64,000 nt of DNA from Solirubrobacterales bacterium (GCA_965200635.1 OZ241364.1:990094-1054093), one strand, 5' to 3'. Shown: positions 7,185-28,555, counted from the first letter of the stretch. The notes: generated by a model not told the origin, from the sequence alone. Translations and numbers: made by a program.

Positions 7185-7223
7185 GGCCGGGTCGTCGCGT
7201 CAGGCGACCCGGCCGGTGCTTTC
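7185..7223 (+). terminator. intrinsic terminator-like hairpin after hup
   Basis: Perfect 11-bp stem CGGCCGGGTCG/CGACCCGGCCG with a 10-nt loop, followed by GTGCTTT. Confidence 0.55.
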
Positions 7224-7306
7224 CCGGCGTGACGGGACCGTGAACGGTCCCGTGCATCCGCCCTCGTACCGATGCGCCCGGCCCCCCGGCTTCCTAGCCT
7301 TCGGGG

Positions 7307-7549
7307 ATGGCCCCTCTTCAGTTCTGGATCCGCGGCGACCTCGCCGCCGATCAACGTGAGCGCCTGACCGAGATCGGCGCGCGCGCCGTCCCGATGGCCC
7401 GCAGCCTGAACGGCAACGGCGAGACCCGCCCCGCGGCCTGGACGATGATCGAGGCGCGGCCCGGCGAGCCGGAGGTCGAGCGCGCGAAGCTCGCCGCCCT
7501 GCTCGGCGCCGAGCCCGACGAGATCACCGGGCCCTACGCCCTCCACTGA
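7307..7549 (+). CDS. hypothetical protein
   Basis: ORF with plausible composition. No motif recognised. Confidence 0.3.
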   Translation: MAPLQFWIRGDLAADQRERLTEIGARAVPMARSLNGNGETRPAAWTMIEARPGEPEVERAKLAALLGAEPDEITGPYALH

Positions 7550-7583
7550 ACGCTCCGCCCTCGAGACCGGGTACCTGGGACCC

Positions 7584-7847
7584 ATGTCCAGCAAAGGCCC
7601 CGAGACCGAGAGCCGCGCCCGCGAGTCGATCCTCGAGCTGCTGGACGCCCGCGGTCCCGACAAGACGATCTGCCCGTCGGAGGTCGCCCGCGTCCTCGCC
7701 GGGGACGCCGACTTCCGCCCTTATATGGAGCCCGTGCGCGACGCTGCCGCGAAGCTGGCTGACGCGGGCCGCATCGCGGTCACCCAGAAAGGCGAGCCGG
7801 TGACGATCGGCGAGGTCCGCGGGCCGATCCGGCTCGGGCTGAAATGA
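7584..7847 (+). CDS. DUF3253-like small protein
   Basis: ILELLDARGPDKTICPSEVARVL...AAKLADAGRIAVTQKG resembles DUF3253. Confidence 0.65.
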   Translation: MSSKGPETESRARESILELLDARGPDKTICPSEVARVLAGDADFRPYMEPVRDAAAKLADAGRIAVTQKGEPVTIGEVRGPIRLGLK

Positions 7848-7893
7848 CGCGCCCGAGCCGCCCGGCTCGGGGCCGATCATCCGCTGAGCGCCG

Positions 7894-8418
7894 TCAGCCC
7901 TGGCGCGGAACCGTGTAGCGGGCGCTGCCTTCGCAGGCCGCCTTGCCGCCGAGGGTCGTCTCCTGATGAACGCTCACCAGCACGGCCCTGCCCGACTTGA
8001 ATCGGAGGGTGACTTCGGTGGTGGCGGAGGAGCGGCCGCCCTTTCGCCCGCCTTCCCGCTTGGTCTTCGTCAGCTTGAAGAACTGGCCCACCTTCGGTTG
8101 CTGCGGGGCCGACAGGCCGATCCCGACCCGCACTTCTTCGCCCTGCATCGAACCGGGCTTCGAACACCTGATCGGCACCCCCGCGAGCGTCACCGAGAGC
8201 CCCTGCCCGCCGACCCCCACGGTCAGCGACCGGCCTTCGTCGAGAGCCTGGTGGAACCGCGAGCCGTCGGGCAGCGTGCAGCCGACCTTCTCGGCGCCCT
8301 TCTTGCAGCTCGACTTCCCCGCCGCGCCCGTCGTCGCCAGCGCCGAAACGACCCCGAGCGCCAGCACCGCACACAACGCGAACCTCCAACGACGAGACAA
8401 GGAGCCTCGGATCTGCAT
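7894..8418 (-). CDS. secreted hypothetical protein
   Basis: Signal peptide from the internal Met (MQIRGSLSRRWRFALCAVLALGVVSALATTGAAG). Confidence 0.5.
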   Translation of the reverse strand: MQIRGSLSRRWRFALCAVLALGVVSALATTGAAGKSSCKKGAEKVGCTLPDGSRFHQALDEGRSLTVGVGGQGLSVTLAGVPIRCSKPGSMQGEEVRVGIGLSAPQQPKVGQFFKLTKTKREGGRKGGRSSATTEVTLRFKSGRAVLVSVHQETTLGGKAACEGSARYTVPRQG

Positions 8419-8545: not shown

Positions 8546-9334
8546 CTAGTCGCGGGGCTTGAAAGTGGCGCGGTAGGAGGCGCTGATGTCGACGGTGAGG
8601 GGCGCGTCCCCCGGCCAGGTCGACGGGAAGCTGCAGTGGAAGTCCTGCGAGGTGTCGACACTGAACTTCTTGCGGGCGATGAACTTCGAGGCGTCGACCG
8701 GGATCGGCCGTGCCGCAAGGGAGTCGCCCTCGATCGCGCCTTCCTCGACCTTGGGGGTGCAGGCCGTCGTCCCCAGGACCCGCATGTCCGGCTCGAGCAC
8801 GCCGGGGCAGGCGCCCCAGGGAAGCTGGCCGAAGCCGGCGCCGAGCGCGAACTTCCCGCCCGACCACGAGAGCCCGACGTCGACCTTCTGCTTTTCGGTC
8901 CCGCAGTCGCTGCGGTCGGCGATCTTGGAGAGCGGCTCGGGATCGCCCTCGACCCAGCCGCACGGGCGGCCGTTGATCACCGCGAACCTCCCCTGCTTCG
9001 AGTAGGCCCCCGGCGCCGTGTAGCTGCCGCTGACGTTGAAGGAGGAGAACTTCACCCCGTTGCCGGCGAGGGTCGTCTGCGCCGGGATCGGCTCCTTCGA
9101 CTTGAAGCTCATCGAGACCGTGCCGGAGCCCTGCGCCTTCTGGCCGGCGGTGCCGTAATACGCTTCGCACGCCTCCGGAACCTCGGCTTCGAAGCTCCAT
9201 TTCACGGTCTGCTTGCCGGAGACCGAGACGGCCCATTCGGTCGGCGGCGCGATCAGCGCGTGGGCGGCGGTCGTGCCGAGGAGGAGGGCGCCGAGGACGG
9301 CGAGCGAGGCGAGCGCTGAGAGGCGGCGGAGCAT
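8546..9334 (-). CDS. secreted hypothetical protein
   Basis: Signal peptide MLRRLSALASLAVLGALLLGTTAAHA at the internal Met (9334). The upstream part of the tracked ORF is Arg/Ser-rich and not protein-like. Confidence 0.6.
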   Translation of the reverse strand: MLRRLSALASLAVLGALLLGTTAAHALIAPPTEWAVSVSGKQTVKWSFEAEVPEACEAYYGTAGQKAQGSGTVSMSFKSKEPIPAQTTLAGNGVKFSSFNVSGSYTAPGAYSKQGRFAVINGRPCGWVEGDPEPLSKIADRSDCGTEKQKVDVGLSWSGGKFALGAGFGQLPWGACPGVLEPDMRVLGTTACTPKVEEGAIEGDSLAARPIPVDASKFIARKKFSVDTSQDFHCSFPSTWPGDAPLTVDISASYRATFKPRD

Positions 9335-9485
9335 CGTCCCGCGAGATTGGCAGAGCCCCGGCGCGCCCGCATCCGTCAAAGCACGGGACTTATGATGGCC
9401 GCGGATGGCAGATCGGACCCTGGAGCCCACCGCGGGCAGCGACGCTCGGTGGACCGGTGCGCCCCCCTCCGGCGATCGCAGCGCC

Positions 9486-10598
9486 GTGGTGGCGATGGCC
9501 GGCGCCGGGCAGCTGGCGCAGATGACCCAGCAGGCCGCGATCTCCCTCGGGATCGAGCTGAGGATCCTGGCCGGGGCGGAGACCGAGTCGGCCGTACTCG
9601 CCGGAGCCCGAGCGCTCATCGGCGACGACACGGCGGAGAACCTGCGCGCGCTCGCCGATGGCGCCGCCGTCCTGACCTTCGACCACGAGGGCTTCGACCC
9701 CGACCTTCTCGCCCAGCTCAAGGCCGAGGGGCTGCATATGGCCCCGTCGCCTGAGGCGGTCCTCTACGCCCAGGACAAGCAGTACGCCCGGGAGAAGCTC
9801 TCCGACCGCTTCCCGCTGCCGCCCTTCGCGCTCGCCGAGTCGATCGAGGACGTCGACTCGTTCGCGGTGGAGCACGGCTGGCCGGTGGTCGCCAAGACCC
9901 CCCGCGGCGGCTACGACGGCGGCGGCGTCTTCGTCCTCGACGATCGCGAGGCGGCCGCCGACCTGGCCGGGAAAGTCGACGGCACCCTCATCCTGGAGCC
10001 GCTGATCGCGATCCGCCGCGAGTTCGCCGTCCTCGCCGCCCGCAGCACCGCGGGCGAGATCGCCATCTACCCAGTCGTCGAGACGATCCAGAAGAACGCG
10101 ATCTGCCACGAGACCCTCGTCCCCGCGGCGCTGCCCCCCGAGGTGCAGGCGGAGGCGACCGAGATCGCCCGGCGGCTGGTCGAGGAGATCGACGCCACCG
10201 GCATCGTCGCGGTCGAGTTCTTCCTCACCGACGACGGCATCCTCATCAACGAGCTCGCCCTTCGCCCCCACAACTCGGGCCACTGGACGATCGAGGGCAG
10301 TGTCACCTCCCAGTTCGAGCAGCACCTGCGAGCGGTCCTCGGCTGGCCGTTGGGATCGACCGAGCTCCGAGCGCCAGCGGTGGCGCTGGTGAACATCTTG
10401 GGCCCCGAGAACGGAGTGGACCCACTGGAGCGCGTCCCCGACCTGATCGCCGATCCCTACGTTCGCCTTCACCTCTACGCAAAGGGGTATAGGCCAGGCC
10501 GCAAGCTAGGCCACGCGACCGTCCTGGGACCCGACCTCGACACCGCCCGCAAGAAGACCACCCAAGTCCGCGCCCTACTGCAAGGAGACCCCGAATGA
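9486..10598 (+). CDS. purK: N5-carboxyaminoimidazole ribonucleotide synthase
   Basis: ATP-grasp protein with an N-terminal GAGQLAQM motif. Overlaps purE. Start uncertain (GTG at 9486 or ATG at 9495). Confidence 0.9.
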   Translation: MVAMAGAGQLAQMTQQAAISLGIELRILAGAETESAVLAGARALIGDDTAENLRALADGAAVLTFDHEGFDPDLLAQLKAEGLHMAPSPEAVLYAQDKQYAREKLSDRFPLPPFALAESIEDVDSFAVEHGWPVVAKTPRGGYDGGGVFVLDDREAAADLAGKVDGTLILEPLIAIRREFAVLAARSTAGEIAIYPVVETIQKNAICHETLVPAALPPEVQAEATEIARRLVEEIDATGIVAVEFFLTDDGILINELALRPHNSGHWTIEGSVTSQFEQHLRAVLGWPLGSTELRAPAVALVNILGPENGVDPLERVPDLIADPYVRLHLYAKGYRPGRKLGHATVLGPDLDTARKKTTQVRALLQGDPE

Positions 10599-11092
10599 GC
10601 CAGCCCCTGGTAGCCATCGCGATGGGCAGCGAATCCGACTTGGAGACGATGACCCCGGCAGCCGAGGCCCTCACCGAGCTAGGAGTCGCCTCCGAACTCC
10701 GAATCCTCTCCGCCCACCGCACCCCCGACGAGATGATCGCCTTCGGCCGCAAAGCCGCCGCCAACGGATTCAAGGTCATCATCGCCGGCGCCGGCGGAGC
10801 CGCCCACCTCCCCGGCATGCTCGCCTCCGTCACCCCCCTCCCCGTCATCGGCGTCCCCCGCTCCCTCAACAACCTGGACGGCCTCGACTCCCTCCTCTCG
10901 ATCGTGCAAATGCCCAAAGGCGTCCCGGTAGCGACCGTCGCAATCGACGGAGCCCGCAACGCTGGCCTTCTCGCAGCGAGGATCCTCGCGACCAGCGATC
11001 CAGAGCTCCGCGGCCGGATCGAGACCATGCAGCAAGAGATGTCCGATGCGGTCCGCGCGTCAGATGGACTGCTCCGCAGCGAGAACGACTGA
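10595..11092 (+). CDS. purE: N5-CAIR mutase (class I PurE)
   Basis: MGSESD, SAHRTPDEM and AGGAAHLPGM motifs. Confidence 0.95.
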   Translation: MSQPLVAIAMGSESDLETMTPAAEALTELGVASELRILSAHRTPDEMIAFGRKAAANGFKVIIAGAGGAAHLPGMLASVTPLPVIGVPRSLNNLDGLDSLLSIVQMPKGVPVATVAIDGARNAGLLAARILATSDPELRGRIETMQQEMSDAVRASDGLLRSEND

Positions 11093-11114
11093 TTCATCCC
11101 GCTCTAGGAGAGAG

Positions 11115-12071
11115 CTAGGCCGCTGCTTCTCTTTCCTTCAGGATTTTTCTCAGCGTCGGCATCAAGGAAGCGGCTCCCCCGATCTTCAATGGGGATCCGT
11201 CGAGTCGTGCGAGTTCAGTGAACGAGCGCAGTGAAGAATCGATCCGCACCTTCAGCTCGTCATCAATCGTGATCAGCCCAGCATCAAACAAGGCGTGCAG
11301 ATCCGCCCTCAGCAAGAGTCCGCCCTCGAGTTCATGGCGTGCACTTTTTGCATAGGGGATTAGGTGGGCAGCGTGCAAGCTCTTCTCCGGCTGCGGTCCA
11401 GTGAAAGCGCAAACAGGTCCAAACCGCATCAGGAGTTGGCGACGGAACTCTCGCTGTCCGATTCGACCCAGCGCAGTAAGTTTGCGGTAGCCGCCAGGGA
11501 TCTCGGGCAACACGACGCTGCCACCCCGCTCCCACCACGGGGCGCCAATGAGGACTTGGCGGCGAGTCACCAGATCCCGGAGCGCCTGCGGATCGACAGG
11601 CCGAATGGCGTGCTGTTTCGCTCGCGATCGGTAGCAGCCCGCCTCGAGTTCACCGGCCGTCACGGCACCACCGATCGACACCCAGCTCCGCGCGTAGTCG
11701 GCTCGATAGATGGTCACTGGGATCTGTTCCACCGACGGCCGATCGAATTCAGCCATGCAGCGACTGCATTTGTAAGTCGGATGCATGGTCGTCCGACTCT
11801 TGAAAGCAGTGCTTTCGCATTCGGGACAGCGCGACCGCTCCTTCTCGCCGCTCCGACGCGCCACCTCATCGACGCGCGAGATCCCTAGCAGCCCCCGCGA
11901 GTCTCGAACTGCGCAGATATCACCGCCGCTCGGGCCATCCCGATTGGCGACAGTCGAGTCCCAGCTGTAGTACCGGCTGGGATCGTCGTCGTAGCCCTGA
12001 TTGCCTTGGTGTTGACGCTCGTCCTCGTCGACGACCAAGAACGACCACGCTCGTTCGGTCACGGCTCCCAT
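11115..12071 (-). CDS. HNH endonuclease with Zn-ribbon and an unassigned N-terminal domain (possible modification-dependent restriction enzyme)
   Basis: C-terminal HNH core: CAFTG...HAAHLIPYA...LLLRADLHALFDAGLITID. CPEC...CSRC zinc ribbon. First gene of the AT-richer island. Confidence 0.72.
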   Translation of the reverse strand: MGAVTERAWSFLVVDEDERQHQGNQGYDDDPSRYYSWDSTVANRDGPSGGDICAVRDSRGLLGISRVDEVARRSGEKERSRCPECESTAFKSRTTMHPTYKCSRCMAEFDRPSVEQIPVTIYRADYARSWVSIGGAVTAGELEAGCYRSRAKQHAIRPVDPQALRDLVTRRQVLIGAPWWERGGSVVLPEIPGGYRKLTALGRIGQREFRRQLLMRFGPVCAFTGPQPEKSLHAAHLIPYAKSARHELEGGLLLRADLHALFDAGLITIDDELKVRIDSSLRSFTELARLDGSPLKIGGAASLMPTLRKILKEREAAA

Positions 12072-12277
12072 TCTTCGTCAGATTATTCAAGTTTCTGCAA
12101 ATGATGGGCTACGTCCTCTCGGAGCGACCTGATTTCGCTTCAGTCCGTCACCCGCGCACAAGAACGTGACACTTATGGAGAAATTGCATAGATTGGTGAG
12201 GCCAAAAAACACGCACGGGGGACTTTTCATGGCTTGCAGTGAAGAACTAGTTGCGGTGGACGTCCGAGGGGCTTCTG

Positions 12278-12802
12278 ATGTCGCCTGAGTTCGAGGCGAT
12301 TCGGTCGAAGAAAGCGTTCCTCGTTCCTCTGAGCGTCGCCGTCGCGGCTGCGATCAGTGCCTGTGGCGGGGGCACTAAGACCGAGACCGTTCACGAAGCA
12401 GGCACCATCAAGACGGTTAAGGAAGCGGCGCACCCTCACCACCATCACAAGAAGAAGCACCACGGTCCCCCGGCAGCGGAAGAAGCCGAAGCACAGGAAG
12501 CCGAAGAAGAAGCTCAGGTCGAAGCACGGGAAGTGCGTCAAGAAGCGAAGCGGGAAGCACGGGCAGAACAAGCCAAGATCGAAGCCGAACTCCAGGTCGA
12601 AATCCAAGAAGCGGAAGGCGAACTGGAAGCTGCTCCCTACGGCTCGGCGGCACCTTCCGAATCGCATTTCTCCCACGGCTCCCATAGCTCCCACAGCTCG
12701 CATTCCTCCCACGTCTCAAGCTCTGGCGGCGGCGAATATGGGGGCGGGCACTACTCGCACTCCTCCCATTCTTCGCACAGCTCCCACTACTCGTCGAGCT
12801 GA
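12278..12802 (+). CDS. hxsA: His-Xaa-Ser repeat protein HxsA (lipoprotein-type signal, E/A/K-rich linker, 11 HxS repeats)
   Basis: Lipobox AAISAC. HPHHHHKKKHH. C-terminal HFSHGSHSSHSSHSSHVS...HYSHSSHSSHSSHYS (12665-12799). Followed by hxsD/B/C. Confidence 0.75.
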   Translation: MSPEFEAIRSKKAFLVPLSVAVAAAISACGGGTKTETVHEAGTIKTVKEAAHPHHHHKKKHHGPPAAEEAEAQEAEEEAQVEAREVRQEAKREARAEQAKIEAELQVEIQEAEGELEAAPYGSAAPSESHFSHGSHSSHSSHSSHVSSSGGGEYGGGHYSHSSHSSHSSHYSSS

Positions 12803-12803
12803 A

Positions 12804-13130
12804 GTGGGCGCTCAAGAGCAAGTTCCCGGTCGCTCGATCGAGGTCAGCTTCGCCGCCCCGACCACCTCCATCGACGCTATCCAGCGAGCCGCCTATCGGT
12901 TCAGCGATCGTTTCTCATGCGAGCTATTGCCGGGCGAAGCCACGCACGTTTGCGTGCTTCGGTCTCGGGGGGACTCGGATATCGACGCGGAGGTCGAGAG
13001 CTTCCGGGTCGAGGTGCTCGATCAGACGTTGCGGGAGCGCGTCCGCGCTGAGACCGAACCGATAAGGACGATGATCCTGGCCCAGGCGTTCTCGCGAACG
13101 GGCGTCGTAGATCCCCAGGACCTCGACTGA
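12804..13130 (+). CDS. hxsD: His-Xaa-Ser system protein HxsD
   Basis: About 108 aa from a GTG start 1 nt after the hxsA stop. Its position and size match HxsD between hxsA and the radical-SAM pair. Called from context. Confidence 0.6.
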   Translation: MGAQEQVPGRSIEVSFAAPTTSIDAIQRAAYRFSDRFSCELLPGEATHVCVLRSRGDSDIDAEVESFRVEVLDQTLRERVRAETEPIRTMILAQAFSRTGVVDPQDLD

Positions 13131-13131
13131 C

Positions 13132-14586
13132 GTGTCCAGGTTTCGTGAGGCAGAGGCCTTCGTCGCGAGCGGGGACGACTGGCGGCTGCTCCCGTTTCGG
13201 TTCGAGCGGCTCAATGGCCGGGTGCTGGTCACCAACATGGTCGGGGAGCATTTGATGCTGTCTGCTGAGGATTTCGAACTTCTTGCGGGTGGCGACCTTC
13301 CCAGTGACTCGAGACTGGTTCGGCGGCTCCGAGCTAAGCAGATGATCAGGAGAGCTGGAGAGCGGGCGCCCTTGACGCTGCTGGCCCTCAAGTCCCGGAC
13401 CCGCTACGCGCGCCTGGCGGAATCCACGGGTCTCCACATTTTCGTCGTGTCGCTGAGATGCGAGCACTCCTGCCCCTACTGTCAAGTCTCGCGTCAGAGC
13501 GAGGATCGGGACCGTTACGACATGTCCCTGTCTACCGCAGAACGGGGCCTCGATATGGCGTTCCGTTCACCGTCTCGTTCTCTGAAGATTGAGTTCCAAG
13601 GCGGCGAGCCCCTGCTCAACTTCGAGCTGATCGAAGAAGTCGTGCGCCAAGCCGAGGAACGGAACCGCGACGAGGGCCGCGACCTCGGCTTCGTTATCGC
13701 CAGCAATCTTGCGTTGCTGAGCGATGAGGTGCTCGACTTCTGCGCCCGACACGACGTCCACATCTCGACGTCCCTCGACGGGCCGGCCGACCTGCACAAC
13801 CGAAACCGTCCTCGGCCCGGCCGCGACAGCTGGGAGCGTGCGGTGGACGGAATCCGACGCGCGCGCGAGGCCCTCGGGGTCGATCACGTCTCGGCCCTGA
13901 TGACGACCACGAAGCGGAGTCTCGGCCGATCGCGCGACATCATCGACACGTATGTCGACCTGGGGCTTCGAGGGATCTTTCTCCGCCCCCTCTCGCCGTA
14001 TGGATTCGCGATCAAGACTAAGAGCTACTCCGCCTACGATGCCGAACGTTGGCTCGATTTCTACCGCGAGGGACTCGCGTACATCCTTGAGTTGAATCGT
14101 CAGGGCTTGGGTCTCACGGAGTACTTCTCGACCGTGATCCTGCGGAAGATGTTGACCAACATCGAACCGGGTTACGTAGACCTCACCTCCCCGGCCGGAA
14201 TCGGGATCGGAGCGCTCGTCTACAACTACGACGGCTCGGTCTATGCCTCCGACGAGGGCCGCATGCTGGCCGAGATGGGCGACGAAACCTTCCGCCTTGG
14301 TCATCTCGAGAAAGACAGCTACGAGGAGATCATGACTGCCGACGCGCTGCTTGCCCCTCTGGAGGAGTCCTTTGCGCCGAGCGCGCCGATGTGCAGTGAC
14401 TGCGCTTTTGAGCCCTACTGTGGATCCGACCCCGTCTATCACTACGCCACGACTGGCGACTTCCTCGGCCGTAAGAGCGAATCAGACTTCTGCCGCCGCA
14501 ACATGGCGATCTTCAAGCATCTGATCGAGCTCTACGAAAGCGACGAATTCGCGCGGCAGACGTTCCTTGGTTGGGCCGGACGATGA
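13132..14586 (+). CDS. hxsB: His-Xaa-Ser system radical SAM maturase HxsB (radical SAM plus SPASM-like C-terminus)
   Basis: CEHSCPYCQV (CxxxCxxC). C-terminal Cys cluster CSDCAFEPYCGSD...FCRRN. Confidence 0.82.
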   Translation: MSRFREAEAFVASGDDWRLLPFRFERLNGRVLVTNMVGEHLMLSAEDFELLAGGDLPSDSRLVRRLRAKQMIRRAGERAPLTLLALKSRTRYARLAESTGLHIFVVSLRCEHSCPYCQVSRQSEDRDRYDMSLSTAERGLDMAFRSPSRSLKIEFQGGEPLLNFELIEEVVRQAEERNRDEGRDLGFVIASNLALLSDEVLDFCARHDVHISTSLDGPADLHNRNRPRPGRDSWERAVDGIRRAREALGVDHVSALMTTTKRSLGRSRDIIDTYVDLGLRGIFLRPLSPYGFAIKTKSYSAYDAERWLDFYREGLAYILELNRQGLGLTEYFSTVILRKMLTNIEPGYVDLTSPAGIGIGALVYNYDGSVYASDEGRMLAEMGDETFRLGHLEKDSYEEIMTADALLAPLEESFAPSAPMCSDCAFEPYCGSDPVYHYATTGDFLGRKSESDFCRRNMAIFKHLIELYESDEFARQTFLGWAGR

Positions 14587-15764
14587 TCAACCTTCGCGGC
14601 CGTGCAAGCGCTTTCGGTTTGCTGCAGCCCCTAGAGCGTGCGGTCTGGATGGTCGTCGATAGCGATCACCTGACGCCGCAGCGGCATGGACGGGCTTACA
14701 AGGTGCGCGCCGGCGAGATCACTCCGCCCGGCTTCGGTCTCTACCTGGTCGACGAGCCGCAATTAGCACCCATCGACGAGTCGTGGATCGCCCTACCCCC
14801 GCTCTTGCAGTACGTCGCCGCCGGAGACGTCATCTCCGCTTCGGCCACCGGGGAGCACGTTCGCGTGCTCTGGCGAGCGGGGAGCCCTAACAACAGCGTC
14901 CTTCTGACCGAGCGTTGCGACCACTACTGCCTGATGTGCTCACAGCCACCGAAGGAACGAGACGACGACTGGCTGCTGGACAACGCTGCAGAGCTCATCC
15001 GCTTGCTTCCGACCTCGACGCCAGGGATTGGCTTCACCGGTGGCGAGCCGACGACCTACGGACAACGGCTCATCGAACTCCTGCGCCTCTGTCGGAACCT
15101 GCTTCCAGACGCCGGCGTGCACGTCCTCTCCAACGGTCGACGTTTCGCAAATTTCGCCTTTGCCAGATCTTGGGCGAGCGTCGACAACCCGAGGATGATG
15201 GTCGGCATCCCTCTCTACGGCGCGGAGCCCGCGCTTCACGACTACGTGGTCCAGTCCGAGGGAGCCTTTGAGGACACGGTCCGCGGAATCGTCAATCTCG
15301 GCGAAGTCGGGCAGCGGATCGAGATTCGCGTCGTCATTCACCAGCAGACGGCTCCAGCTCTGCCGGAGATCGCCGAGTACATCGCCCGCAACCTCCCCTT
15401 CGTCGAGCAAGTCGCGCTTATGGGTCTCGAGATGATGGGCTTCGCCCGCGCCAACGTCAAAGACGTCTGGATAGACCCCGTCGACTACCAAGACGAACTG
15501 CGCGAGGCCGTCTCACTCCTCGCACGCCGACGAGTCAAGACGATGATCTACAACCATCAGCTCTGTCTGCTCCACCGCGAACTATGGCCCTTCGCGGTCC
15601 GCTCGATCTCGGATTGGAAGAACGAGTACCACCCCGAGTGCGAGGCGTGCAGCGTTAGGGAGCGCTGCGGCGGTTTCTTCTTCTCGGCGAAATACCGGCA
15701 CAGCGAGAACATCCAGGCGGTGGCCGCGGAGGCGGGGCGGGCGCCAGCGTTGCTGGAGATCTGA
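14583..15764 (+). CDS. hxsC: His-Xaa-Ser system radical SAM maturase HxsC
   Basis: CDHYCLMCSQ (CxxxCxxC). C-terminal CEACSVRERC. ATGA overlap with the hxsB stop. Confidence 0.82.
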   Translation: MINLRGRASAFGLLQPLERAVWMVVDSDHLTPQRHGRAYKVRAGEITPPGFGLYLVDEPQLAPIDESWIALPPLLQYVAAGDVISASATGEHVRVLWRAGSPNNSVLLTERCDHYCLMCSQPPKERDDDWLLDNAAELIRLLPTSTPGIGFTGGEPTTYGQRLIELLRLCRNLLPDAGVHVLSNGRRFANFAFARSWASVDNPRMMVGIPLYGAEPALHDYVVQSEGAFEDTVRGIVNLGEVGQRIEIRVVIHQQTAPALPEIAEYIARNLPFVEQVALMGLEMMGFARANVKDVWIDPVDYQDELREAVSLLARRRVKTMIYNHQLCLLHRELWPFAVRSISDWKNEYHPECEACSVRERCGGFFFSAKYRHSENIQAVAAEAGRAPALLEI

Positions 15765-15778
15765 GAGGTCGAAGGAAC

Positions 15779-16411
15779 GTGTGGCGGTGGATCGGGGACT
15801 GGTTCGAGATTTGCGTCTCGATCGTCGGAACCGTGCTCGGGGTCGCCGCGGGCGCGGTGGCGATGAACACGGCTCACGCGAATCTCGAAGCGAGCTTCTA
15901 CGACACGATCGCCCAAATTCTTCCTGTGTTCTTGGTCGCACTCGCAGTCGAGCAGAAGCTGATCGACCGCCTGGGCATCGTCGAGGACGAGTACGTGAAG
16001 CGTGCTGATCGCGCCCTCGATCTCGCCATCGCCGCCGAACAGGCCGACAGAGCCGGGGAGTACATCGTTGCCCAGGAGTTTCAGGACAGCTTCGACAGCG
16101 AGCCGCGATTCGGATGGGTCCGTGGATACGTGGATGAGCTGATCTACGGTGACGACGCGAGCGTGCGGGCCGGGGTAGCCGCACAGGCGCGTGATCACTA
16201 CCGTCGAGAGCGTCTGAATGAGGCCCTGTTCGTGGCGATCGCCATCACTGCGCTCATCGTCGGAGAGTGTGCCGCGCTTGGAGGCATGCTACAGGGAGGG
16301 AGTTCACGATGTTCGCTATACCTGGGTCTGGCTATCGGAAGTACGGTCGCCGTGATCGTAGCTTTGACCTTTAGTGGCGCCCGTGAACTGGTGAACTCGC
16401 TGCTTCGGTAA
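15779..16411 (+). CDS. hypothetical membrane protein (about 4 TM), 14 nt after hxsC
   Basis: Hydrophobic segments at both ends. No family recognised. Confidence 0.45.
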   Translation: MWRWIGDWFEICVSIVGTVLGVAAGAVAMNTAHANLEASFYDTIAQILPVFLVALAVEQKLIDRLGIVEDEYVKRADRALDLAIAAEQADRAGEYIVAQEFQDSFDSEPRFGWVRGYVDELIYGDDASVRAGVAAQARDHYRRERLNEALFVAIAITALIVGECAALGGMLQGGSSRCSLYLGLAIGSTVAVIVALTFSGARELVNSLLR

Positions 16412-16539
16412 GCCGGGGTCGGGTCGCTGCGCGGCCCGACCTCCGGGTGAACGCTTTGGCGCACTCCCCTCCACGGGTCTAGGTAGCCGCAAACCGACCT
16501 GTGAACAAACGAGGCCACCAACCGAGTTCGGCAGTCGAA

Positions 16540-17436
16540 TTAGTCGTGCTTGCCGCGCCGACTGAACGGTTCGGCGAGATCCGCTTCGGCGAAGCCGCTC
16601 GAAGTCGGAGACCCGTTGGCGTAGCGATAGAGAGCGACGGCGAAGATCTCGCGGGTGGCGAGGGCGAGCGCCGAGATCAGCAGTAGGCCTCCGATCGCGA
16701 TGGCGATCAGCGCTGCGCCGAGGTTTGGGGAATCGCCCCTGATTGCCAGTCCGGCGCCGAAGACGATCGCGACCGGGACTAGGGCGACGGTGCTCCAGGC
16801 GGCGATGCTCACGAGCCCGGTGATCCCCTCGCCCCATTTTCCTTTGACCAGGCGGACCGAGCCCTTGGCGGTCTCGAGCGGTCCGGTGCCCTCCAACGCA
16901 AGTAAGGGCACGGCGAAGATCGTCGCCAGGCTCCAGGCTGCGCCGGCGAGCCACGATGCAACCCGCCCGGCGCCCGGAATCCTTGCTGCCACCTCCTCGA
17001 GGATGAGGCCGACGCCGGCTGCCAGCAGGGCCCATTGGGCGATCCGCCCGACCCGCTTCCACGAGATTTCCAACGCTTCCCGTACGCCGATCGGCCGACC
17101 GTCGAGACTGGCCGCCGCCGCACCCGCAAGCGCGACGTTGAAGAACACACTGATGAAAGTCATCGGGTAGAGCGCGATCAATCCGGCCAATGCCAGGCTC
17201 CCGTTCGAATGGGTCGGCGACCTGAACCACCCAGAGAAGTACATCGTCGCCGCTCCTCCCGCGAGCCCGAATCCCGTCCCGATCAGAGCGATCGCGATCA
17301 TCGTGGGATCCCGCCGGATGAGGTCCCAGGCGACTTTGGTCAACCGCCACCCCCGCGCCATCTTCCCTTCAGGCGCCCCACCGTCTCCGCTCATTCGCCC
17401 GTCCACGCCGGAAAGAATAGGGCAGATAACCAGCAA
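16540..17436 (-). CDS. polytopic membrane protein of unknown function
   Basis: Six or more hydrophobic helices (e.g. IAIALIGTGFGLAGGAATMYFSGWF). Start uncertain. Confidence 0.55.
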   Translation of the reverse strand: MLVICPILSGVDGRMSGDGGAPEGKMARGWRLTKVAWDLIRRDPTMIAIALIGTGFGLAGGAATMYFSGWFRSPTHSNGSLALAGLIALYPMTFISVFFNVALAGAAAASLDGRPIGVREALEISWKRVGRIAQWALLAAGVGLILEEVAARIPGAGRVASWLAGAAWSLATIFAVPLLALEGTGPLETAKGSVRLVKGKWGEGITGLVSIAAWSTVALVPVAIVFGAGLAIRGDSPNLGAALIAIAIGGLLLISALALATREIFAVALYRYANGSPTSSGFAEADLAEPFSRRGKHD

Positions 17437-18625: not shown

Positions 18626-19870
18626 ATGGCGATGTCGGCCAACTTCGCCAGACACAGTCGCAAGCCGATCCTGGAAGCACTGGCCGATACCCGCGTCGTC
18701 TACGTGATGGGCGCCAGGCAGGTGGGCAAGAGCACCCTGACGGGAGAGATCGCGACGAGCGAGCACCTAGCTGACGTGCTCAGCCTTGATAACCGAGCGG
18801 CGAGGGATGCGGCGAGCAGCGACCCCGAGGGATTCGTGGCCGGCCTCTCGCGCCCGGTCCTGCTCGACGAGGTCCAGCGAGCCGGCCCCGATCTGCTGCT
18901 CGCGATCAAGGGGGCCGTCGACGCCGACCAGACGCCGGGCCAGTTTCTGCTGACGGGCTCGGCCAACGTCCTCACCAACCGCAAAGTCCAGGACGCGCTC
19001 ACCGGACGGATCGAGATCATCACCCTGTGGCCGCTGTCCCAGAGCGAGATCGAGGGATCGGCCGGCAATATCGTCGACTCTCTCTTCTCCGCGGCGCCGC
19101 CTCAGATCAGCGATGCCCCGGTCGGCCGCGGGGCCTTCGTCGATCGAATCGCGGCCGGTGGATACCCCGAGGCGCTGAAGCGCAACGGGTCACGCCGGGC
19201 CAACTGGTTCGAGAACTATCTGAAGACGACGCTCGACCGCGACCTGCGCGACATCAGCGATGCGCAGAAATTGGGCGAGATGCCGCGGCTGCTAAAGCTG
19301 CTGGCGGGCCGTGCCGCGAGCCTCCTGAACTCCTCGGAGGTGGGCAAGCGACTGCAGCTGGAGCATAAGACCGTCCGCAGCTATACGACCCTCTTGGAGA
19401 CCGTCTTCCTGGTCAAGACCCTCCCCGCCTGGAGGCCGTCGATCGGAGCCCGCGAGTCGACGACGCGCAAGGTCTACATCGTCGACAGCGGCCTCCTTGC
19501 CCATTTGCTCGGAGCCGACCCGAAACGCCTCGCCGAGGACGAGCGCGTCACCGGAATGGCGCTCGAGAACTTCGTCGCGATGGAGGTGATGAAGCACCTC
19601 GAATGGGCGAGCACCGACGCAAGGCTTTTCCACTACCGAACCGGCAACGACGAGATCGACCTCGTCCTCGAGGATCGCTCAGGAGCGATCGCCTGCCTTG
19701 AGGTCAAGGCGGCGGCGACGGTCCGGGAACGAGACTGGAAGCCGATGGCGAAGATCCGGGATGCTCGCAGCGAGGACTTCCGCGCCGGGTTCCTGATTCA
19801 TGCCGGCGCCCAGACCGTCCCGCTCGGCGATCGACTCTGGGCGGTTCCGATCAGCGCTCTATGGACATAG
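18626..19870 (+). CDS. AAA+ ATPase of the AAA_14/DUF4143 type
   Basis: Walker A VMGARQVGKSTL. Overall pattern of the widespread 'ATP-binding protein, DUF4143' family. Confidence 0.78.
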   Translation: MAMSANFARHSRKPILEALADTRVVYVMGARQVGKSTLTGEIATSEHLADVLSLDNRAARDAASSDPEGFVAGLSRPVLLDEVQRAGPDLLLAIKGAVDADQTPGQFLLTGSANVLTNRKVQDALTGRIEIITLWPLSQSEIEGSAGNIVDSLFSAAPPQISDAPVGRGAFVDRIAAGGYPEALKRNGSRRANWFENYLKTTLDRDLRDISDAQKLGEMPRLLKLLAGRAASLLNSSEVGKRLQLEHKTVRSYTTLLETVFLVKTLPAWRPSIGARESTTRKVYIVDSGLLAHLLGADPKRLAEDERVTGMALENFVAMEVMKHLEWASTDARLFHYRTGNDEIDLVLEDRSGAIACLEVKAAATVRERDWKPMAKIRDARSEDFRAGFLIHAGAQTVPLGDRLWAVPISALWT

Positions 19871-20903: not shown

Positions 20904-23834
20904 CTAGGGCGAGGAGTCGACTATCGGATCGTCCGCGCGGGCCGGGTCGCGGGCGACGAAACGCACCAAGGCTCCGTCAGGCGACCCGGTAGAGGTGGGA
21001 GCTACGAAGACGAGGGCGAAGATCACCTCGTGCGCGTCGAGGTCGGCGGTGACGGTGTCGTCGCCGGTCTCGACCATCGGGTAGAGCAGGACCGCTCCGC
21101 GGAGCGGTTTGTGAAGCTGCGCCGCGAGCTCGTCGTCGTGGTTGCCGACGCCGGCGATCTGGCCCGCGATCGGTCGGTGCTTGGGATCACTGATCGCGCC
21201 GAAAAGGCCGCCGCGGCCTTTTCGGCGGCGACGGCGGAAAACACTGAGGGTGCCGTGGCCGACGACCTCGGCGCGGGGGCCGGGGCCGACGTGCTGGGGC
21301 AGCATCACCACCCAGTCCTCGATCTGGTCGCTGCCGAGGCCCTCCAGCCAGGTCAGATCGGCGGCGAAGTGATCGTCGGGCCGCCAGCGCAGGTCTTTCA
21401 AGACCGCGAGCAGCTCCTGATGGTCGACGGTGCCGTACCGACAAGTCAAGAGGCTCCTCGCTGACGAGCCCTCCAGCTTGAAGGCTCCGTCCTTCGCCGC
21501 GGCTTTCACAAGCGGTGCGACCGCGGTCGTGTTGTGGGCGATGTCCGCAGGATCTTCCGGGTAACCGGTCGGCTCCAAGCGCTCCCCCGGGGAGCGGCGC
21601 TCCACCAGCTGTGCGTTGTACATCTTCCCGGCCGACGAGGGCTTCAGCCAGCCGAGATGCTGGGAAACGAGTGGCGGGATGTCCCGAGGAGTGATCATCG
21701 GCACCCCGTTTTTCAGCTCGCCGTAGCGCCGAATCTCCCCGCGGAACAGCTCCTCCGAACGACACGCTGCCTCGAATGCCTCGTAGAGGTCAAAGGCGCG
21801 GCCGTGACCGCCGCGATCGATGTAGAGGCGGACCAGGTCCTCGTAGCCGCTACGGAAACCGAACCAGCGACCCATCTGCATCAGGGTGTCGGCCTGTTTC
21901 GTCACTCGGCGGTAGTAGGAAACCGTCAGCCCCTCTACGGTGAACCCGCGCGAGAGCTTGGCGCCGCCGAGCAGGACCCGCCAGACCGGTCGGCTGTCGA
22001 AGTCGACCTCTTCCCGTGCCGCTTCTCTGTCCCCGTTCACAATCAGAACCGGGTCGTTGTCGGGACCCTCGATCCGGGACACCACCTCGCCGACGTACCC
22101 CTGGACGCTCTCGTAATCGGCCGGGACCGCCGCGCCGTCGCTGCGGGCCTCCATCACAGCCGCGACGTCGGAGTGAAACAGGTCGCGCAGCCGGGCATGG
22201 CCGGTGGACCCCCAGTATCCGGATCCCTTCCACGTCTCCCGCACCGCTTCGGCGAGCTGGAGGTGGTCCACCTGTTTGACCGACTCGTGGATCAGCATCG
22301 TGTGGTGTTTGAAGCGGCGCTCTTCGTTCACTTCCCGGTAGAGCTTGATCGCGCCGGTGAGGATGAACATGTCGAGCGCCTGCTGCATCACGCCCTCCAG
22401 GTCTTCCTCGTCGATCTCGCGGACGTAGGCGAGGCGCTTCGAGTTGGTAACGGTCCGCACCTCGTCCTCGGGCAGGATGTCGAGATCGTGGAACTCGACC
22501 GCGCCCATGTATCCCGGCGGCCGGTCTAGCGAGAGGATGAAACTTTTCGGGAAGAGGTCGGCGGAGTCATCGGGGTCGACGAAGACGTTGGCGAACGGCG
22601 TCGCGGTGTAGCCGACGTACTGTCCTCGCGGCAGTTTCTCGAGCAGTTCGGAGATCAGGCCGTTGATTGCCGTCCGCTTCGTCTGGCCGGCTTCCCAGTT
22701 TTTCGGGTTGGAGGTGTTCAACGAGGCCTGGTCGGACTCGTCGTCGATGATCAGCGCCGGGATGTCGCCGAGCTTCGCGGTGATCCGGTTCAGGTCCTTG
22801 ACCAACCGCGTCAGGACGCTCTTGTTCTTCTTGACGACGACGATCCGGGTCGGCACCCGGTGCAGGTTCTCCGGGGCGTTGAGTGGCTTGTCGGGATGGA
22901 GGCGCTCGAAATCGAGGGAGGAGATCCCCTGCGCCAGGCTGGCGTAGTCGCCCGCTTTGGTGGTCAGCCGGTAGATATCGGCGAATCCAAGCTCCGAGGG
23001 CAGGCCGCCGTGGCTGACGAACTCCGCGCGATCGGGATCCCCGGCGTAGTCGACGCTGCGGACCGCGTCGGGATCGTCCCGGTCGATCCCACGCATCAGG
23101 TTCTCGTCGCCGACCAGCTCCTTGTCGATTCGTCTCTGCGTCTGCCGGCGGAGCAGGTCGGTCTGCCCAGTGAGGACGATTATCAGGCGGTAGCCGGCGT
23201 CGATCGCCTTGGCGATGACACCGGTGAAGTTGGCGGTCTTCCCACTCTGGACGTAGCCGACTACCAGCCCTTTGGCCTGGTAGGCCTCTCTGCGCTCGGG
23301 GTCGCTCAAGCGCTCGACGATCCGGGTCGTGTTGAGATCAAGCGCGGCGACCGAGGTCTCATTTTCCCACTCCCTGGCGAGGTATTCGGCGTAGTGCTTC
23401 CAGTAGAAGGGCTCGCGTTCGCCCATTACCCGGCCGTACCAGGGCTCGAAGACGTCGCTGACGACCACCGACCTGTCCTCGGCCCGCGGAACGGCCTTAT
23501 CGAGGCACCCGATCAGCTCCTCGCCGAGCCCGAGCCGCTCGTAGACGAGGGCGCGGCGCTCGCCGGTTCCGGGCTTCGTCTGTCCGACCCATTCCGCCAT
23601 CGGCTCCGCGTCCCAGCCCGCGAGGGTCAGGCGAAACCTGGTCAAGAGCCGCTCCGCCGGTTCGGCCGCGACCAGGTGGGCGGCCAGGACCGAGGGCGCG
23701 GCCAACTCCGGCACATCCATCTCGTCCGCCTCGAACTCGGCCCGCCGAGCGAGGTCCGAGGGACCGCGCGTCGCCATCCCGTCGAGAGCGGATGCGTAGA
23801 TCCTGTACAGGGCCTCCGCGTTCTCAGCTGCCAA
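20904..23834 (-). CDS. Z1-domain SF2 helicase-like ATPase
   Basis: P-loop GYVQSGKTANFTG, Walker B/DExx LIIDDESDQAS. Size and order are typical of Z1 proteins that follow GHKL and PD-(D/E)XK genes. Confidence 0.8.
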   Translation of the reverse strand: MAAENAEALYRIYASALDGMATRGPSDLARRAEFEADEMDVPELAAPSVLAAHLVAAEPAERLLTRFRLTLAGWDAEPMAEWVGQTKPGTGERRALVYERLGLGEELIGCLDKAVPRAEDRSVVVSDVFEPWYGRVMGEREPFYWKHYAEYLAREWENETSVAALDLNTTRIVERLSDPERREAYQAKGLVVGYVQSGKTANFTGVIAKAIDAGYRLIIVLTGQTDLLRRQTQRRIDKELVGDENLMRGIDRDDPDAVRSVDYAGDPDRAEFVSHGGLPSELGFADIYRLTTKAGDYASLAQGISSLDFERLHPDKPLNAPENLHRVPTRIVVVKKNKSVLTRLVKDLNRITAKLGDIPALIIDDESDQASLNTSNPKNWEAGQTKRTAINGLISELLEKLPRGQYVGYTATPFANVFVDPDDSADLFPKSFILSLDRPPGYMGAVEFHDLDILPEDEVRTVTNSKRLAYVREIDEEDLEGVMQQALDMFILTGAIKLYREVNEERRFKHHTMLIHESVKQVDHLQLAEAVRETWKGSGYWGSTGHARLRDLFHSDVAAVMEARSDGAAVPADYESVQGYVGEVVSRIEGPDNDPVLIVNGDREAAREEVDFDSRPVWRVLLGGAKLSRGFTVEGLTVSYYRRVTKQADTLMQMGRWFGFRSGYEDLVRLYIDRGGHGRAFDLYEAFEAACRSEELFRGEIRRYGELKNGVPMITPRDIPPLVSQHLGWLKPSSAGKMYNAQLVERRSPGERLEPTGYPEDPADIAHNTTAVAPLVKAAAKDGAFKLEGSSARSLLTCRYGTVDHQELLAVLKDLRWRPDDHFAADLTWLEGLGSDQIEDWVVMLPQHVGPGPRAEVVGHGTLSVFRRRRRKGRGGLFGAISDPKHRPIAGQIAGVGNHDDELAAQLHKPLRGAVLLYPMVETGDDTVTADLDAHEVIFALVFVAPTSTGSPDGALVRFVARDPARADDPIVDSSP

Positions 23835-24819
23835 TGCCCGCTCCCATCAGGTCGAGTGCGGCGACGAGCTCGGGGGGCGGGCCGGAGCTCGCCGCAAAGC
23901 TCGAGACGTCGATGTCGTAGTCGACCTCACGGATCTTCGAGGTGTCGACCGGCAGACCGGTGAGCAGCGACGGGGTGATCCGGGGGAAGTCGTTCTCGAC
24001 CCGGAGCGGAAGCGGAACGGTCCGCAGCCGCCAACGATCTTTGTAGAGGTCGCGCTGGGTCTCGTTCCAGCGGACGCCGGCCAAGTTCGCAAGCACGCGC
24101 TCGTGCCCCTCCGGGCCCGCCTGGTCGAGAACGTCGTCGACCAGCTCCGACAAGGTCCGGCCCTGGTCGTCCCCACCTCGCGTTATCTGGACCGAGAGCA
24201 GCCAGAGCGCGCCTCCCGCGGTCGGCAGAAGCTGGCCGAGGCCGTGGATCCGATGCACGCGGTGCTCTCCCGCCGTCGTCTTCACCTCGACGTCAATCTC
24301 CCCGAAGCCGAAGTCATGCTCCTCCCGCAGGCCGCCCCGCCAGGCCTCCGGGCCGGCGGCTCCCGAGGCCAGAAGTGCCTCGGTCAGCAGGAGCTCTCCA
24401 AAGAGGCCGACCTCGGCTTCGACCCCGAGACGCGCTCGGGCAGAGAGGATCGATTCCCAGAGGTCCAGGGTCTCTTCGAAGGCCGCCAGCGGCCCGGCGC
24501 CGTCGAGCTGGATTCGGTCAGCGATCATCATCAGCATCGAGTAGCCGTCCGCGACCAGCTCCTCCCCCATGGTCGCGATCTCAAGGTAGCGTCGGCCGCC
24601 ATCGAAGACAGCGGCGGCGGTCACGTTCGCCAGCCGGTTCGGAGGGATCACCGCGATCTCGTCCATCGGGGCGCGGAGGGTGAGGCGGCCGGCCGGCTTA
24701 TCGATCAGCAGCCTCAGCTCGGGCTCTCCCCCGAGGCGGATCAGGACCGGCACTCCGGTCTCCCAATGTTCCTTCAAGGCCGGAAGCGAGAGACGCCTCT
24801 CGTCGCCGGTGACACTCAT
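23824..24819 (-). CDS. PD-(D/E)XK-motif nuclease-fold protein
   Basis: EHDFGFGEIDVEVKTT (D...E.K). ATGA overlap with the upstream GHKL gene and an 11-nt overlap with Z1. Confidence 0.7.
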   Translation of the reverse strand: MSVTGDERRLSLPALKEHWETGVPVLIRLGGEPELRLLIDKPAGRLTLRAPMDEIAVIPPNRLANVTAAAVFDGGRRYLEIATMGEELVADGYSMLMMIADRIQLDGAGPLAAFEETLDLWESILSARARLGVEAEVGLFGELLLTEALLASGAAGPEAWRGGLREEHDFGFGEIDVEVKTTAGEHRVHRIHGLGQLLPTAGGALWLLSVQITRGGDDQGRTLSELVDDVLDQAGPEGHERVLANLAGVRWNETQRDLYKDRWRLRTVPLPLRVENDFPRITPSLLTGLPVDTSKIREVDYDIDVSSFAASSGPPPELVAALDLMGAGIGS

Positions 24820-26333: not shown

Positions 26334-26599
26334 GGTATTGCGACGGTCGCCTGCCGCGTTTCGCCAACGCCCGCCTAACGAAGTCCTCCCGTCGTCGGGA
26401 CCGGTCCTGCCGGAGGTGGGGATGGCAGACGGTGGTGAGTCCGCTCTCATCGAGCTGTCTTCCCTCGCAGGCAGACACACCCGCGGGGATCTCCTCGTAG
26501 ACCTCGAGGTTGAAGGGCGCGCAACCGCGCAGAGTGGACCGCGGCAGTCCGATACGACGACCCTAAGGGAGGACTGGCCGCCGCTCTGCAGGCTCTTGG

Positions 26600-26683
26600 C
26601 GTGCTCGGGCGCCATACGTCTTGAGGACGAGGGGCGTTGGCTTTGAGGAGCCGCTTTGCGCCGGCGTGTAGCTGTGATGAGAC
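26600..26683 (+). repeat. tRNA-Glu-like hairpin repeat TLR-D (most diverged)
   Basis: CGTCTTGAGGACGAGGGGCGTTGGCTTTGAGGAGCCGC...GCCGGCGTGTAGCTGTGATGAGACC aligns with TLR-A and TLR-C. Lies in the 485-bp MTase/GHKL spacer. Confidence 0.55.
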
Positions 26684-26818
26684 CGGAACGGAAGCCCACC
26701 ACGCTCACCTTAAGCCGAACTTCACCTCATCAGGCGGAGACTTTGCCCGCCTACCGCAAGACACTACGAGGCGTCCCCCGGTCCGGCTGACGACGACCGA
26801 GTGAACAAGTCAATCTCT

Positions 26819-28372: not shown

Positions 28373-28555
28373 AGGTTCAGAGCCGGAGGCGCATGCCTAG
28401 CGCGCCCCGCGAGGTCATCCCGATATCGCATCGAGGGCTCTCGGAGCCTGAGAGATCGACGACGAAGATAGCCTCCCACAGCGAGGCAGCACCCTCCGGA
28501 TCGCCGGGATCTTTCACGCAGGGGAGGCGTCGCGTGGCTCGGACTAACAGCATGG

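Follow-up and report, generated by a model that had tools for sequence, protein, structure and literature searches.

An intact HXS operon with a predicted lipid-anchored effector in a putative defence island of a Solirubrobacterales bacterium

The stretch of DNA analysed here (the window, 64,000 nucleotides from Solirubrobacterales bacterium, Actinomycetota; GCA_965200635.1 OZ241364.1:990094-1054093) contains an intact and translationally coupled operon of the His-Xaa-Ser (HXS) family, hxsA-hxsD-hxsB-hxsC, followed by a gene for a four-transmembrane (TM) protein, open reading frame (ORF) 5. All five genes lie on the plus strand, as seen in the ORF map and the raw sequence. To our knowledge, no other bacterial system has been described that arrests phage DNA as it enters the cell. 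From its protein sequences, the locus almost certainly belongs to this family. It probably represents an intact HXS operon of A-D-B-C order in a Solirubrobacterales defence island, with a lipid-tethered effector that would block the entry of phage DNA. All experimental work on HXS comes from E. coli; there, a peptidoglycan-binding domain keeps the effector in the periplasm, and the basic repeats of the effector are proposed to bind DNA. The window locus and about 22 relatives place the HXS enzyme set also in actinobacteria, here in a genome without BamA. The locus thus offers an undescribed HXS form, a putatively lipid-anchored repeat protein from a single-membrane soil actinobacterium. It is a natural contrast case for what the radical S-adenosylmethionine (SAM) modification and the HxS repeats do, and a candidate module for phage resistance in Gram-positive hosts.

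The E. coli operon hxsD-hxsB-hxsC-hxsA blocks phage DNA entry and protects against 110 of 113 coliphages, with all four genes needed for defence (Li et al., Nat Commun 2026, PMC13128918). Neither abortive infection nor a block of adsorption is involved, and genome entry is prevented. The E. coli HxsA combines a signal peptide with five basic HxS repeats and a peptidoglycan-binding domain. Its processing and its export to the periplasm depend on active HxsB, HxsC and HxsD, and the protein carries a +8 Da change on SHRSS of its last repeat, while mutation of HxsD Y23, D61 and R65 impairs HxsA processing and abolishes defence. A HxsA-based census in the same study assigned 99.7% of the systems to Pseudomonadota and 99.6% to the D-B-C-A order (PMC13128918). 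An earlier description of the window made from its sequence alone (the original prediction) had held that the family was defined only by comparative genomics and that its chemistry and role were unknown, a view which is outdated by the anti-phage activity, the DNA-entry block, the enzyme-dependent processing and the mass change reported by Li et al. Our literature search found no other paper on HXS.

The operon and its maturation enzymes

The gene coordinates, the 1-nucleotide gaps, the ATGA overlap and the 14-nucleotide spacing before ORF5 (Table 1) given in the original prediction were all reproduced by the ORF map and the sequence. The same is true of the lipobox, the HPHHHH patch and the 11 H-x-S triplets in two blocks of hxsA, as well as of the motif CEHSCPYC with a SPASM-like Cys cluster in HxsB and CDHYCLMC in HxsC. 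The tight gaps, the overlap, the short spacing before ORF5 and the position of the only strong hairpin, directly after ORF5, suggest that hxsA-hxsD-hxsB-hxsC, probably together with ORF5, are transcribed as a single unit, and no terminator was found between hxsC and ORF5. The hairpin lacks a U-tract, and it likely marks the end of the transcription unit as a putative terminator. Two promoter-consensus sites were found in the region against 0.6 expected, one of them a sigma-70-like match upstream of hxsA. An Rfam scan of 10.5-18 kb returned no RNA element. The GC content dips to 0.62 over the operon (12-16 kb), compared with 0.69-0.71 in the flanks.

The proposal of a complete HxsABCD system was checked with curated profile models, and it stood for HxsB, HxsC and HxsD. 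HxsB matches TIGR03978 (NCBIfam) over its full length (1-466 of 466) with 610 bits (cut-off 370). HxsC matches TIGR03977 with 395.7 bits (cut-off 267.9; 396.6 bits in the genome scan), and HxsD passes TIGR03976 marginally (53.8 bits, cut-off 50). HxsA, in contrast, stays below all three HxsA models, as described in the next section. The original prediction had also named a better score of the radical SAM proteins to other maturase families as a finding that would speak against it; those families scored far lower. PapB, SCIFF, anaerobic sulfatase maturase, PqqE-like and cyclophane-forming identities of HxsB were rejected on these scores. Weak radical SAM matches to pVip in PADLOC-DB 2.0, which contains no Hxs models, were rejected as generic radical SAM similarity.

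The residues expected to be essential in the enzymes are kept. HxsB harbors the CEHSCPYC motif plus C421, C424, C430 and C454, and HxsC harbors CDHYCLMC plus C328, C353, C356 and C362. In an alignment of 72 HxsB/HxsC pairs, including the Klebsiella pair, which keeps every Cys, C110/114/117 and C421/424/430 of HxsB are present in 72 of 72 homologues and C454 in 69 of 72, and C112/116/119 and C328/353/356/362 of HxsC are present in all 72. In HxsD, Y31, D73, L76 and R77 are invariant over nine proteins including that of Klebsiella. Among them, Y31, D73 and R77 correspond to Y23, D61 and R65, the E. coli residues mutated by Li et al.

HxsB resembles the triceptide/cyclophane maturases (XyeB, GrrM/OscB, FxsB and YhhB) and PapB in combining a radical SAM domain with a C-terminal Cys cluster, and the H-x-S triplet fits the aromatic-X-X three-residue logic of the triceptide enzymes. 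Moreover, the His-linking HtkB/HaaB are cyclophane-type maturases (PMC11499958). However, the triceptide/PapB models match HxsB weakly (E values of 1e-9 to 1e-31; 38-109 bits against cut-offs of 310-450), and XyeB, GrrM/OscB, FxsB, YhhB and AmcB reach 38-70 bits. In addition, a single triceptide cross-link changes the mass by -2 Da rather than the +8 Da of E. coli HXS, and HXS requires a second radical SAM enzyme and HxsD. Judged by these sequence scores, HxsB is not a member of the triceptide/PapB families.

The HxsA effector and its relatives

HxsA is composed of a lipobox-bearing signal peptide, a His/Lys patch, an acidic spacer and two C-terminal HxS blocks. Its N-terminus reads MSPEFEAIRSKK-AFLVPLSVAVAAAISA-C29, in which RSKK-AFLVPLSVAVAAA-ISAC29 fits the lipobox pattern [LVI][ASTVI][GAS]C after a basic n-region and a hydrophobic h-region. 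The AAIS(A/S)C segment is strictly kept in the close HxsA orthologues (about 15). Lgt (156 bits) and LspA (82.5 bits) are both encoded in the genome with scores above cut-off, and from the lipobox and these two enzymes Cys29 is predicted to be lipidated. A second Lgt-like gene lies in the window at ~36453-37178 on the minus strand (G000:C1:1026546-1027271); it scores 82.7 bits, below the cut-off of 118.9, and the canonical lgt is located elsewhere in the genome. The His/Lys patch is kept at its position in P0013-P0018 and in the nearest relative (L051), and is absent or weak in P0019 and P0020, while the length of the acidic spacer varies among the orthologues. The tail, SHFSHGSHSSHSSHSSHVSSS-GGGEYGGG-HYSHSSHSSHSSHYSSS, contains 11 in-register HxS triplets. 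In 10,000 shuffles that preserved the composition of the protein, the number of triplets averaged 3.0 and did not exceed 10. In total, HxsA contains 19 His residues.

HxsA fails all the curated HxsA models tested, NF038296 (HxsA2, 25.2 bits against a cut-off of 48), TIGR03979 (HxsA, 20.5 against 121.65) and NF038313 (HxsA4, 16.8 against 55), and it has no match in PHROGs. A Pfam scan found no domain in it, thus no peptidoglycan-binding domain, whereas the HxsA of Klebsiella has PG_binding_1. A plain BLOSUM62 local alignment pairs residues 112-157 of the window HxsA with residues 38-82 of Klebsiella HxsA, including SH-x-SSSGGG-x-YGG, so that block 1 aligns with the Klebsiella segment GHRSHSSHRSHSSHRSSSGGGYYGG, which holds the published SHRSS modification site. 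Composition-adjusted BLASTP returned no alignment of the two proteins. The aligned region is of low complexity, and the similarity is at the level of motifs only.

The two-block tail is shared by all 23 Solirubrobacterales HxsA proteins. The blocks hold 5-7 and 4-5 repeats and are divided by a Gly-rich linker; each ends with SH(Y/V)S, and block 2 stops two residues before the C-terminus. The residue X of the repeats is basic in 0% of cases in the window, 3% in Solirubrobacterales, 17% in other A-D-B-C systems and 60% in the Klebsiella type. A lipobox is present in 7 of the 23 proteins. The window subgroup, which combines lipobox, His/Lys patch and acidic spacer, comprises the window, L031, L032, L051, L105 and the metagenomic proteins P0013-P0021, the latter unnamed or annotated as hypothetical. 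In L038 and L043, the lipobox of HxsA is combined with a Thr-rich linker, and the largest Solirubrobacterales subgroup carries an ordinary signal peptide. The curated models also miss the effector of the five relatives scored, with HxsA2 scores of 24-26. The family is therefore wider than reported, as the effectors of these relatives escape the models tested and their repeats are almost free of basic residues.

In other clades the HxS core is joined to different modules, so the effector looks modular, pairing this core with a retention device suited to the lineage. In the Planctomycetota loci L092, L094, L097 and L100-L103 and in Marmoricola L089, HxsA has 244-341 residues with central HxS repeats, followed by a C-terminal extension of 130-230 residues without Pfam match. 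The extension is conserved in Planctomycetota, with the motif KAFIKDLL...VGETIGDxKL...RLKP. These extensions suggest other retention modules on the same HxS core. On a Mesorhizobium plasmid (L117, NZ_CP122441.1; 2491-3008), an HxsA-like gene encodes 62 residues ending with HTSHSSHASHGSHCSGYSYC. RefSeq annotates hxsB and hxsC there but leaves the HxsA-like and HxsD-like genes upstream as hypothetical, so that Pseudomonadota, too, have A-D-B-C members which escape the curated models.

Among the closest known systems is the HxsA2 type (NF038296; Pseudomonas hxsA2-hxsD-hxsB-hxsC). It shares the A-D-B-C order, the (K/R)(K/R)xFL(V/K)P start of the signal peptide and HxS repeats ending two residues before the C-terminus. 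Its HxsB and HxsC are 55-62% and 45-55% identical to those of the window, and it belongs to the sister clade in the HxsB+C tree. The Pseudomonas HxsA passes the HxsA2 model with 104.6 bits, far above the window protein. The HxsA2 proteins, about 94 residues long, carry an ordinary signal peptide and a single block of 5-8 repeats, whereas the 174 residues of the window HxsA comprise a lipobox, a His/Lys patch, an acidic stalk and two blocks. The literature searched contained no experimental test of an HxsA2-type system.

The E. coli/Klebsiella type shares the four protein families, with HxsB, HxsC and HxsD above the equivalog cut-offs, and all cluster-binding Cys residues and the mutation-tested Tyr, Asp and Arg of HxsD are kept. 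Common to both are also an exported effector, tandem HxS repeats and an SHxSS motif leading into SSSGGGxYGG. The two types differ in gene order, which is D-B-C-A in E. coli/Klebsiella, and in the effector. There, HxsA has PG_binding_1 and a single HxS block near the N-terminus with the 60% basic X residues mentioned above, as opposed to the lipobox and the two uncharged C-terminal blocks of the window protein. Particularly, the Klebsiella plasmid locus has the D-B-C-A order and a 211-residue HxsA with PG_binding_1, and its HxsB is 32.7% identical to that of the window. A further difference lies in the host of the window operon, which has a single membrane and no BamA.

Lineage, proposed mechanism and alternatives

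A scan for HxsC in species-representative genomes yielded 78 loci; 70 of these retain hxsD and 8 are too truncated to tell. An ORF with HxS repeats lies directly upstream of hxsD, giving the A-D-B-C order, in 68 of the 70. In the concatenated HxsB+C tree, which was built by a quick search and contains long branches, the window falls into a 22-locus clade with an approximate likelihood-ratio support (SH-aLRT) of 99, and the operon is intact in about 22 species-level genomes. Twenty of the 22 loci are labelled Solirubrobacterales, Conexibacteraceae, Actinomycetes or Actinomycetota. Its sister clade, with 48 rows, consists of double-membrane phyla (Pseudomonadota, Planctomycetota, Nitrospirota and others), and the Klebsiella type is located on a branch of 3.6 substitutions per site. 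As read from these sequences, the locus belongs to a deep A-D-B-C branch with an effector architecture separate from that of the studied type.

The distribution of HxsC is sporadic. It was found in 0 of 400 genomes sampled across the phylum; the search within the order, with 4 of 400 genomes positive, showed that this zero is due to how sparsely the order is represented in the phylum-level sample. None of the 13 listed genomes of the same genus carries it, and three carriers within the window's GTDB family correspond to the contigs of L032, L042 and L050, all labelled Solirubrobacterales, in agreement with the placement of the host. The nearest relative (L051) is colinear with window positions 8638-15754 at 80.5% nucleotide identity, covering a secreted protein, purK, purE, the HNH nuclease and hxsADBC, and the match ends exactly at the end of hxsC. 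A profile search found no BamA in the window's genome, while seven double-membrane control genomes gave signal; the absence fits a single-membrane envelope.

In the mechanism we propose, HxsB and HxsC, with HxsD bound to HxsC, would covalently modify the HxS tail of HxsA in the cytoplasm. This step is suggested by homology, and all catalytic Cys residues are kept, as are all HxsD residues that Li et al. tested. The likeliest modified sites would be the block-terminal SH(V/Y)SS motifs, which match the SHRSS of E. coli with its mass change. The modified HxsA would then be exported and lipidated at Cys29 by Lgt/LspA, and the mature protein would be anchored on the external side of the cytoplasmic membrane, the only membrane of the cell. 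The His/Lys patch would be positioned at this membrane, followed by the acidic helical stalk, with the two modified HxS blocks reaching into the wall zone. From there, the tethered HxsA may interfere with phage genome entry as in E. coli, and, to judge from the architecture, the lipid anchor probably stands in for the peptidoglycan-binding domain by which the E. coli/Klebsiella effector is kept in the periplasm. The full defence mechanism at this locus is, in our analysis, a reasonably probable one. Its defence aspect is supported by the HNH, PDC-S01, Mza-like, methyltransferase and LmuB-like neighbours, the GC dip and the sporadic distribution.

Several points weigh against this proposal. The window HxsA fails every curated HxsA model, and the acylation and the modification site are sequence-based predictions. 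All experiments on the family were made on the E. coli type, from which the window HxsB is distant at the identity given above, and the studied type sits at the end of a long branch. The host has no outer-membrane-bounded periplasm. Furthermore, the difference between 0% and 60% basic X residues means that, on sequence grounds, the published electrostatic model is not directly transferable. The HxS repeats of the window contain neither Arg nor Lys, which makes electrostatic DNA binding by the repeats unlikely as the whole mechanism. As the repeats of the relatives are almost free of basic residues too, this composition argues that electrostatic DNA capture would not be the general HXS mechanism.

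The main alternatives concern ORF5 and the position after hxsC. ORF5 has four predicted TM helices and a helical cytoplasmic loop of ~85 residues. Its nine homologues are 53-84% identical, with TM helix 2 almost invariant, and it matches no Pfam, NCBIfam, PADLOC or PHROGs family. No fold was assigned, because the AlphaFold model (10 sequences) has a predicted local distance difference test (pLDDT) score of 70.8 and Foldseek against the PDB gave nothing better than E = 0.6. In sister loci the position is occupied by other membrane proteins. Family X, an unannotated 1-TM protein of ~180 residues with the motif GEGKRIVAFRQxANRIC(T/S)EN and without Pfam or NCBIfam match, stands after hxsC or one gene further in 10 loci (L051 at 7185-7742, L034, L039-L042, L045-L047 and L050). 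Family Y is a divergent CorA-like protein of ~380 residues, in which YGANT replaces the GMN motif and two TM helices lie at the C-terminal end. It stands directly after hxsC in 8-9 Solirubrobacterales loci (L035 at 7188-8336, L046-L048, L040, L037, L034, L041 and L045). Both families often overlap the hxsC stop by 1-4 nucleotides. A relationship between ORF5 and family X was rejected (profile comparison probability 0.2%). ORF5, X and Y are mutually unrelated, and some loci hold none of them; these counts come from ~25 loci that are related to each other. The window's genome also has a lone Y copy, 60% identical and 0.4 Mb away (G000:C1:1411417-1412556; L122:5417-6556, minus strand), which adjoins an amidase and an ABC transporter and has no Hxs genes nearby. 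Its flanks are unlike those of the Hxs-linked loci in a synteny comparison, a mismatch that neither favours nor opposes a functional link between Y and Hxs.

The original prediction had suggested ORF5 as a possible fifth component, and a check of what follows hxsC in other genomes gave a divided answer. On the supporting side, ORF5 homologues follow hxsC on four contigs (L111, L112, L113 and the P0002 contig), with gaps of 15-17 nucleotides in L111 and the P0002 contig and ~70 in L112/L113. Their HxsC proteins are 79% (L111) and 83% (L112/L113) identical to that of the window. On the other side, ORF5 is absent from L051, whose colinearity with the window breaks where hxsC ends, as well as from L031-33 and L105, and four homologues (L109, L110, L114 and L115) have no Hxs neighbours. 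That ORF5 is unrelated island cargo abutting a plain four-gene HXS system has a little less than an even chance. The break in L051 favours this explanation, as do the half of the known ORF5 contexts that lack Hxs and the two lone homologues adjoining Hypoth_Ymh genes, which suggest a separate mobile module. It has to account, however, for the same-strand spacing of 14-17 nucleotides kept on the window, L111 and the P0002 contig and for the missing terminator between hxsC and ORF5. Moreover, the downstream flanks that were readable, those of L111 and L112/L113, differ from the flank in the window, so that ORF5 moves together with hxsC rather than with its downstream neighbours, which counts against cargo. 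These same features, together with the hairpin solely after ORF5, would fit a five-component unit, in which a membrane partner after hxsC (ORF5 here, a CorA-like or 1-TM protein in the sisters) is needed in the single-membrane clade and would export, position or act with HxsA, for example as a phage-responsive gate or pore. The occupation of the same position by X or Y points in this direction, and outside the clade no conserved family follows hxsC, bar families limited to closely related Pseudomonas loci. We consider such a unit rather unlikely, given the loci without ORF5, the ORF5 homologues and the Y gene standing away from Hxs, the lack of relationship among the three families, the loci without any of them, and the E. 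coli system, which functions with four genes. Because ORF5, X and Y are unrelated and Y stands alone in the window's genome, ORF5 is treated as a facultative accessory or cargo gene, and ORF5 as a required fifth component is a minority reading.

It is also unlikely that the locus represents a distinct Solirubrobacterales HXS subtype for the single-membrane envelope, with a tethered effector and an interchangeable membrane partner (ORF5, a CorA-like protein without GMN, or a 1-TM protein). The tether of such a subtype, with the same doubtful standing, would be the lipid anchor here and other means in sister loci. If this holds, the membrane itself, and not a periplasm, would be the place where phage DNA is kept from entering, and the uncharged, His/Tyr-rich double HxS block would act non-electrostatically, for example by metal- or cross-link-dependent plugging or sensing of the phage channel. 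A role outside defence appears improbable. In this scenario HxsA would be a His-rich lipoprotein for surface metal handling (Zn, Ni, Co, Cu) or another envelope function, and the radical SAM enzymes would build a metal-binding cross-linked motif. The 19 His residues of HxsA, including HPHHHH(KKK)HH, the uncharged repeats and the CorA/ZntB-like channel gene directly after hxsC in sister loci are in line with it, and Hxs was first described solely as a peptide-maturation system. Nevertheless, the sole experimental data for the family are anti-phage, the locus lies among defence genes, and a sporadic occurrence of 1%, as seen here, is typical of cargo with a defence function. In addition, the CorA-like gene has YGANT instead of GMN and is unlinked to Hxs in this genome, and no metal-responsive regulator or riboswitch was found nearby.

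Features and genomic surroundings

Table 1 Coordinates of the features of the window, counted from its first nucleotide.
Feature	Position	Strand	Description
Sigma-70-like promoter match	12166..12194	+	GTGACA-17-TAGATT; upstream of hxsA; consensus match only
hxsA	12278..12802	+	174 residues; ATG at 12278, stop 12800-12802; GAGGGG precedes ATG
Signal peptide with lipobox (hxsA)	12278..12364	+	RSKK-AFLVPLSVAVAAAISA-C29, read from sequence
His/Lys patch (hxsA)	12431..12463	+	HPHHHHKKKHH; residues 52-62, just after the predicted lipid anchor
Acidic spacer (hxsA)	12473..12631	+	Glu/Ala/Arg-rich; 53 residues, net charge -13; probably helical
HxS block 1 (hxsA)	12665..12718	+	6 repeats, residues 130-147; ends SHVSSS, then GGGEYGGG
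HxS block 2 (hxsA)	12749..12793	+	5 repeats, residues 158-172; ends SHYSSS at the C-terminus
hxsD	12804..13130	+	108 residues; GTG start; 1-nucleotide gap from hxsA; small partner protein
hxsB	13132..14586	+	484 residues; GTG start; 1-nucleotide gap from hxsD; radical SAM/SPASM-type maturase
hxsC	14583..15764	+	393 residues; ATG within ATGA overlap with hxsB; second radical SAM maturase
ORF5	15779..16411	+	GTG start; 14 nucleotides after hxsC; four hydrophobic segments
GC-rich hairpin	16413..16446	+	Directly 3' of ORF5; -35.8 kcal/mol, z = -2.55; no U-tract
HNH_2 nuclease	11115-12071	-	CxxC...CxxC zinc ribbon; divergent, 206 nucleotides from hxsA
PDC-S01 (DUF4143) ATPase	18626-19870	+	508 bits (PADLOC)
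MzaB/C/D-like genes	20904-26708	-	PADLOC matches
Type II methyltransferase, LmuB-like (Lamassu-like) ABC ATPase	within 20904-32192	-	PADLOC matches
tRNA-like 'tRNA-???'	32965-33060	-	ARAGORN; 96 nucleotides, two-base anticodon call

The defence-rich stretch runs from purE to the aberrant tRNA-like sequence at its far end, which is the sole tRNA-like match in the 64 kb, and its reading as a defence island rests on PADLOC matches. The HNH_2 gene lies next to hxsA also in L051, where the nuclease has 80% amino-acid identity and the spacer is 203 nucleotides long. The gene could be a type IV-like restriction gene in its own right or could be inherited together with HXS. A multi-pass membrane protein of the DUF6159 family (16540-17436, minus strand, 100 bits) converges on ORF5, and this gene was not found in any related Hxs locus. 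The genome of the window is assembled as one contig of 3.82 Mb, compared with 2.5-3.1 Mb for the 13 listed genomes of the same genus, and the larger size hints at a big accessory fraction.

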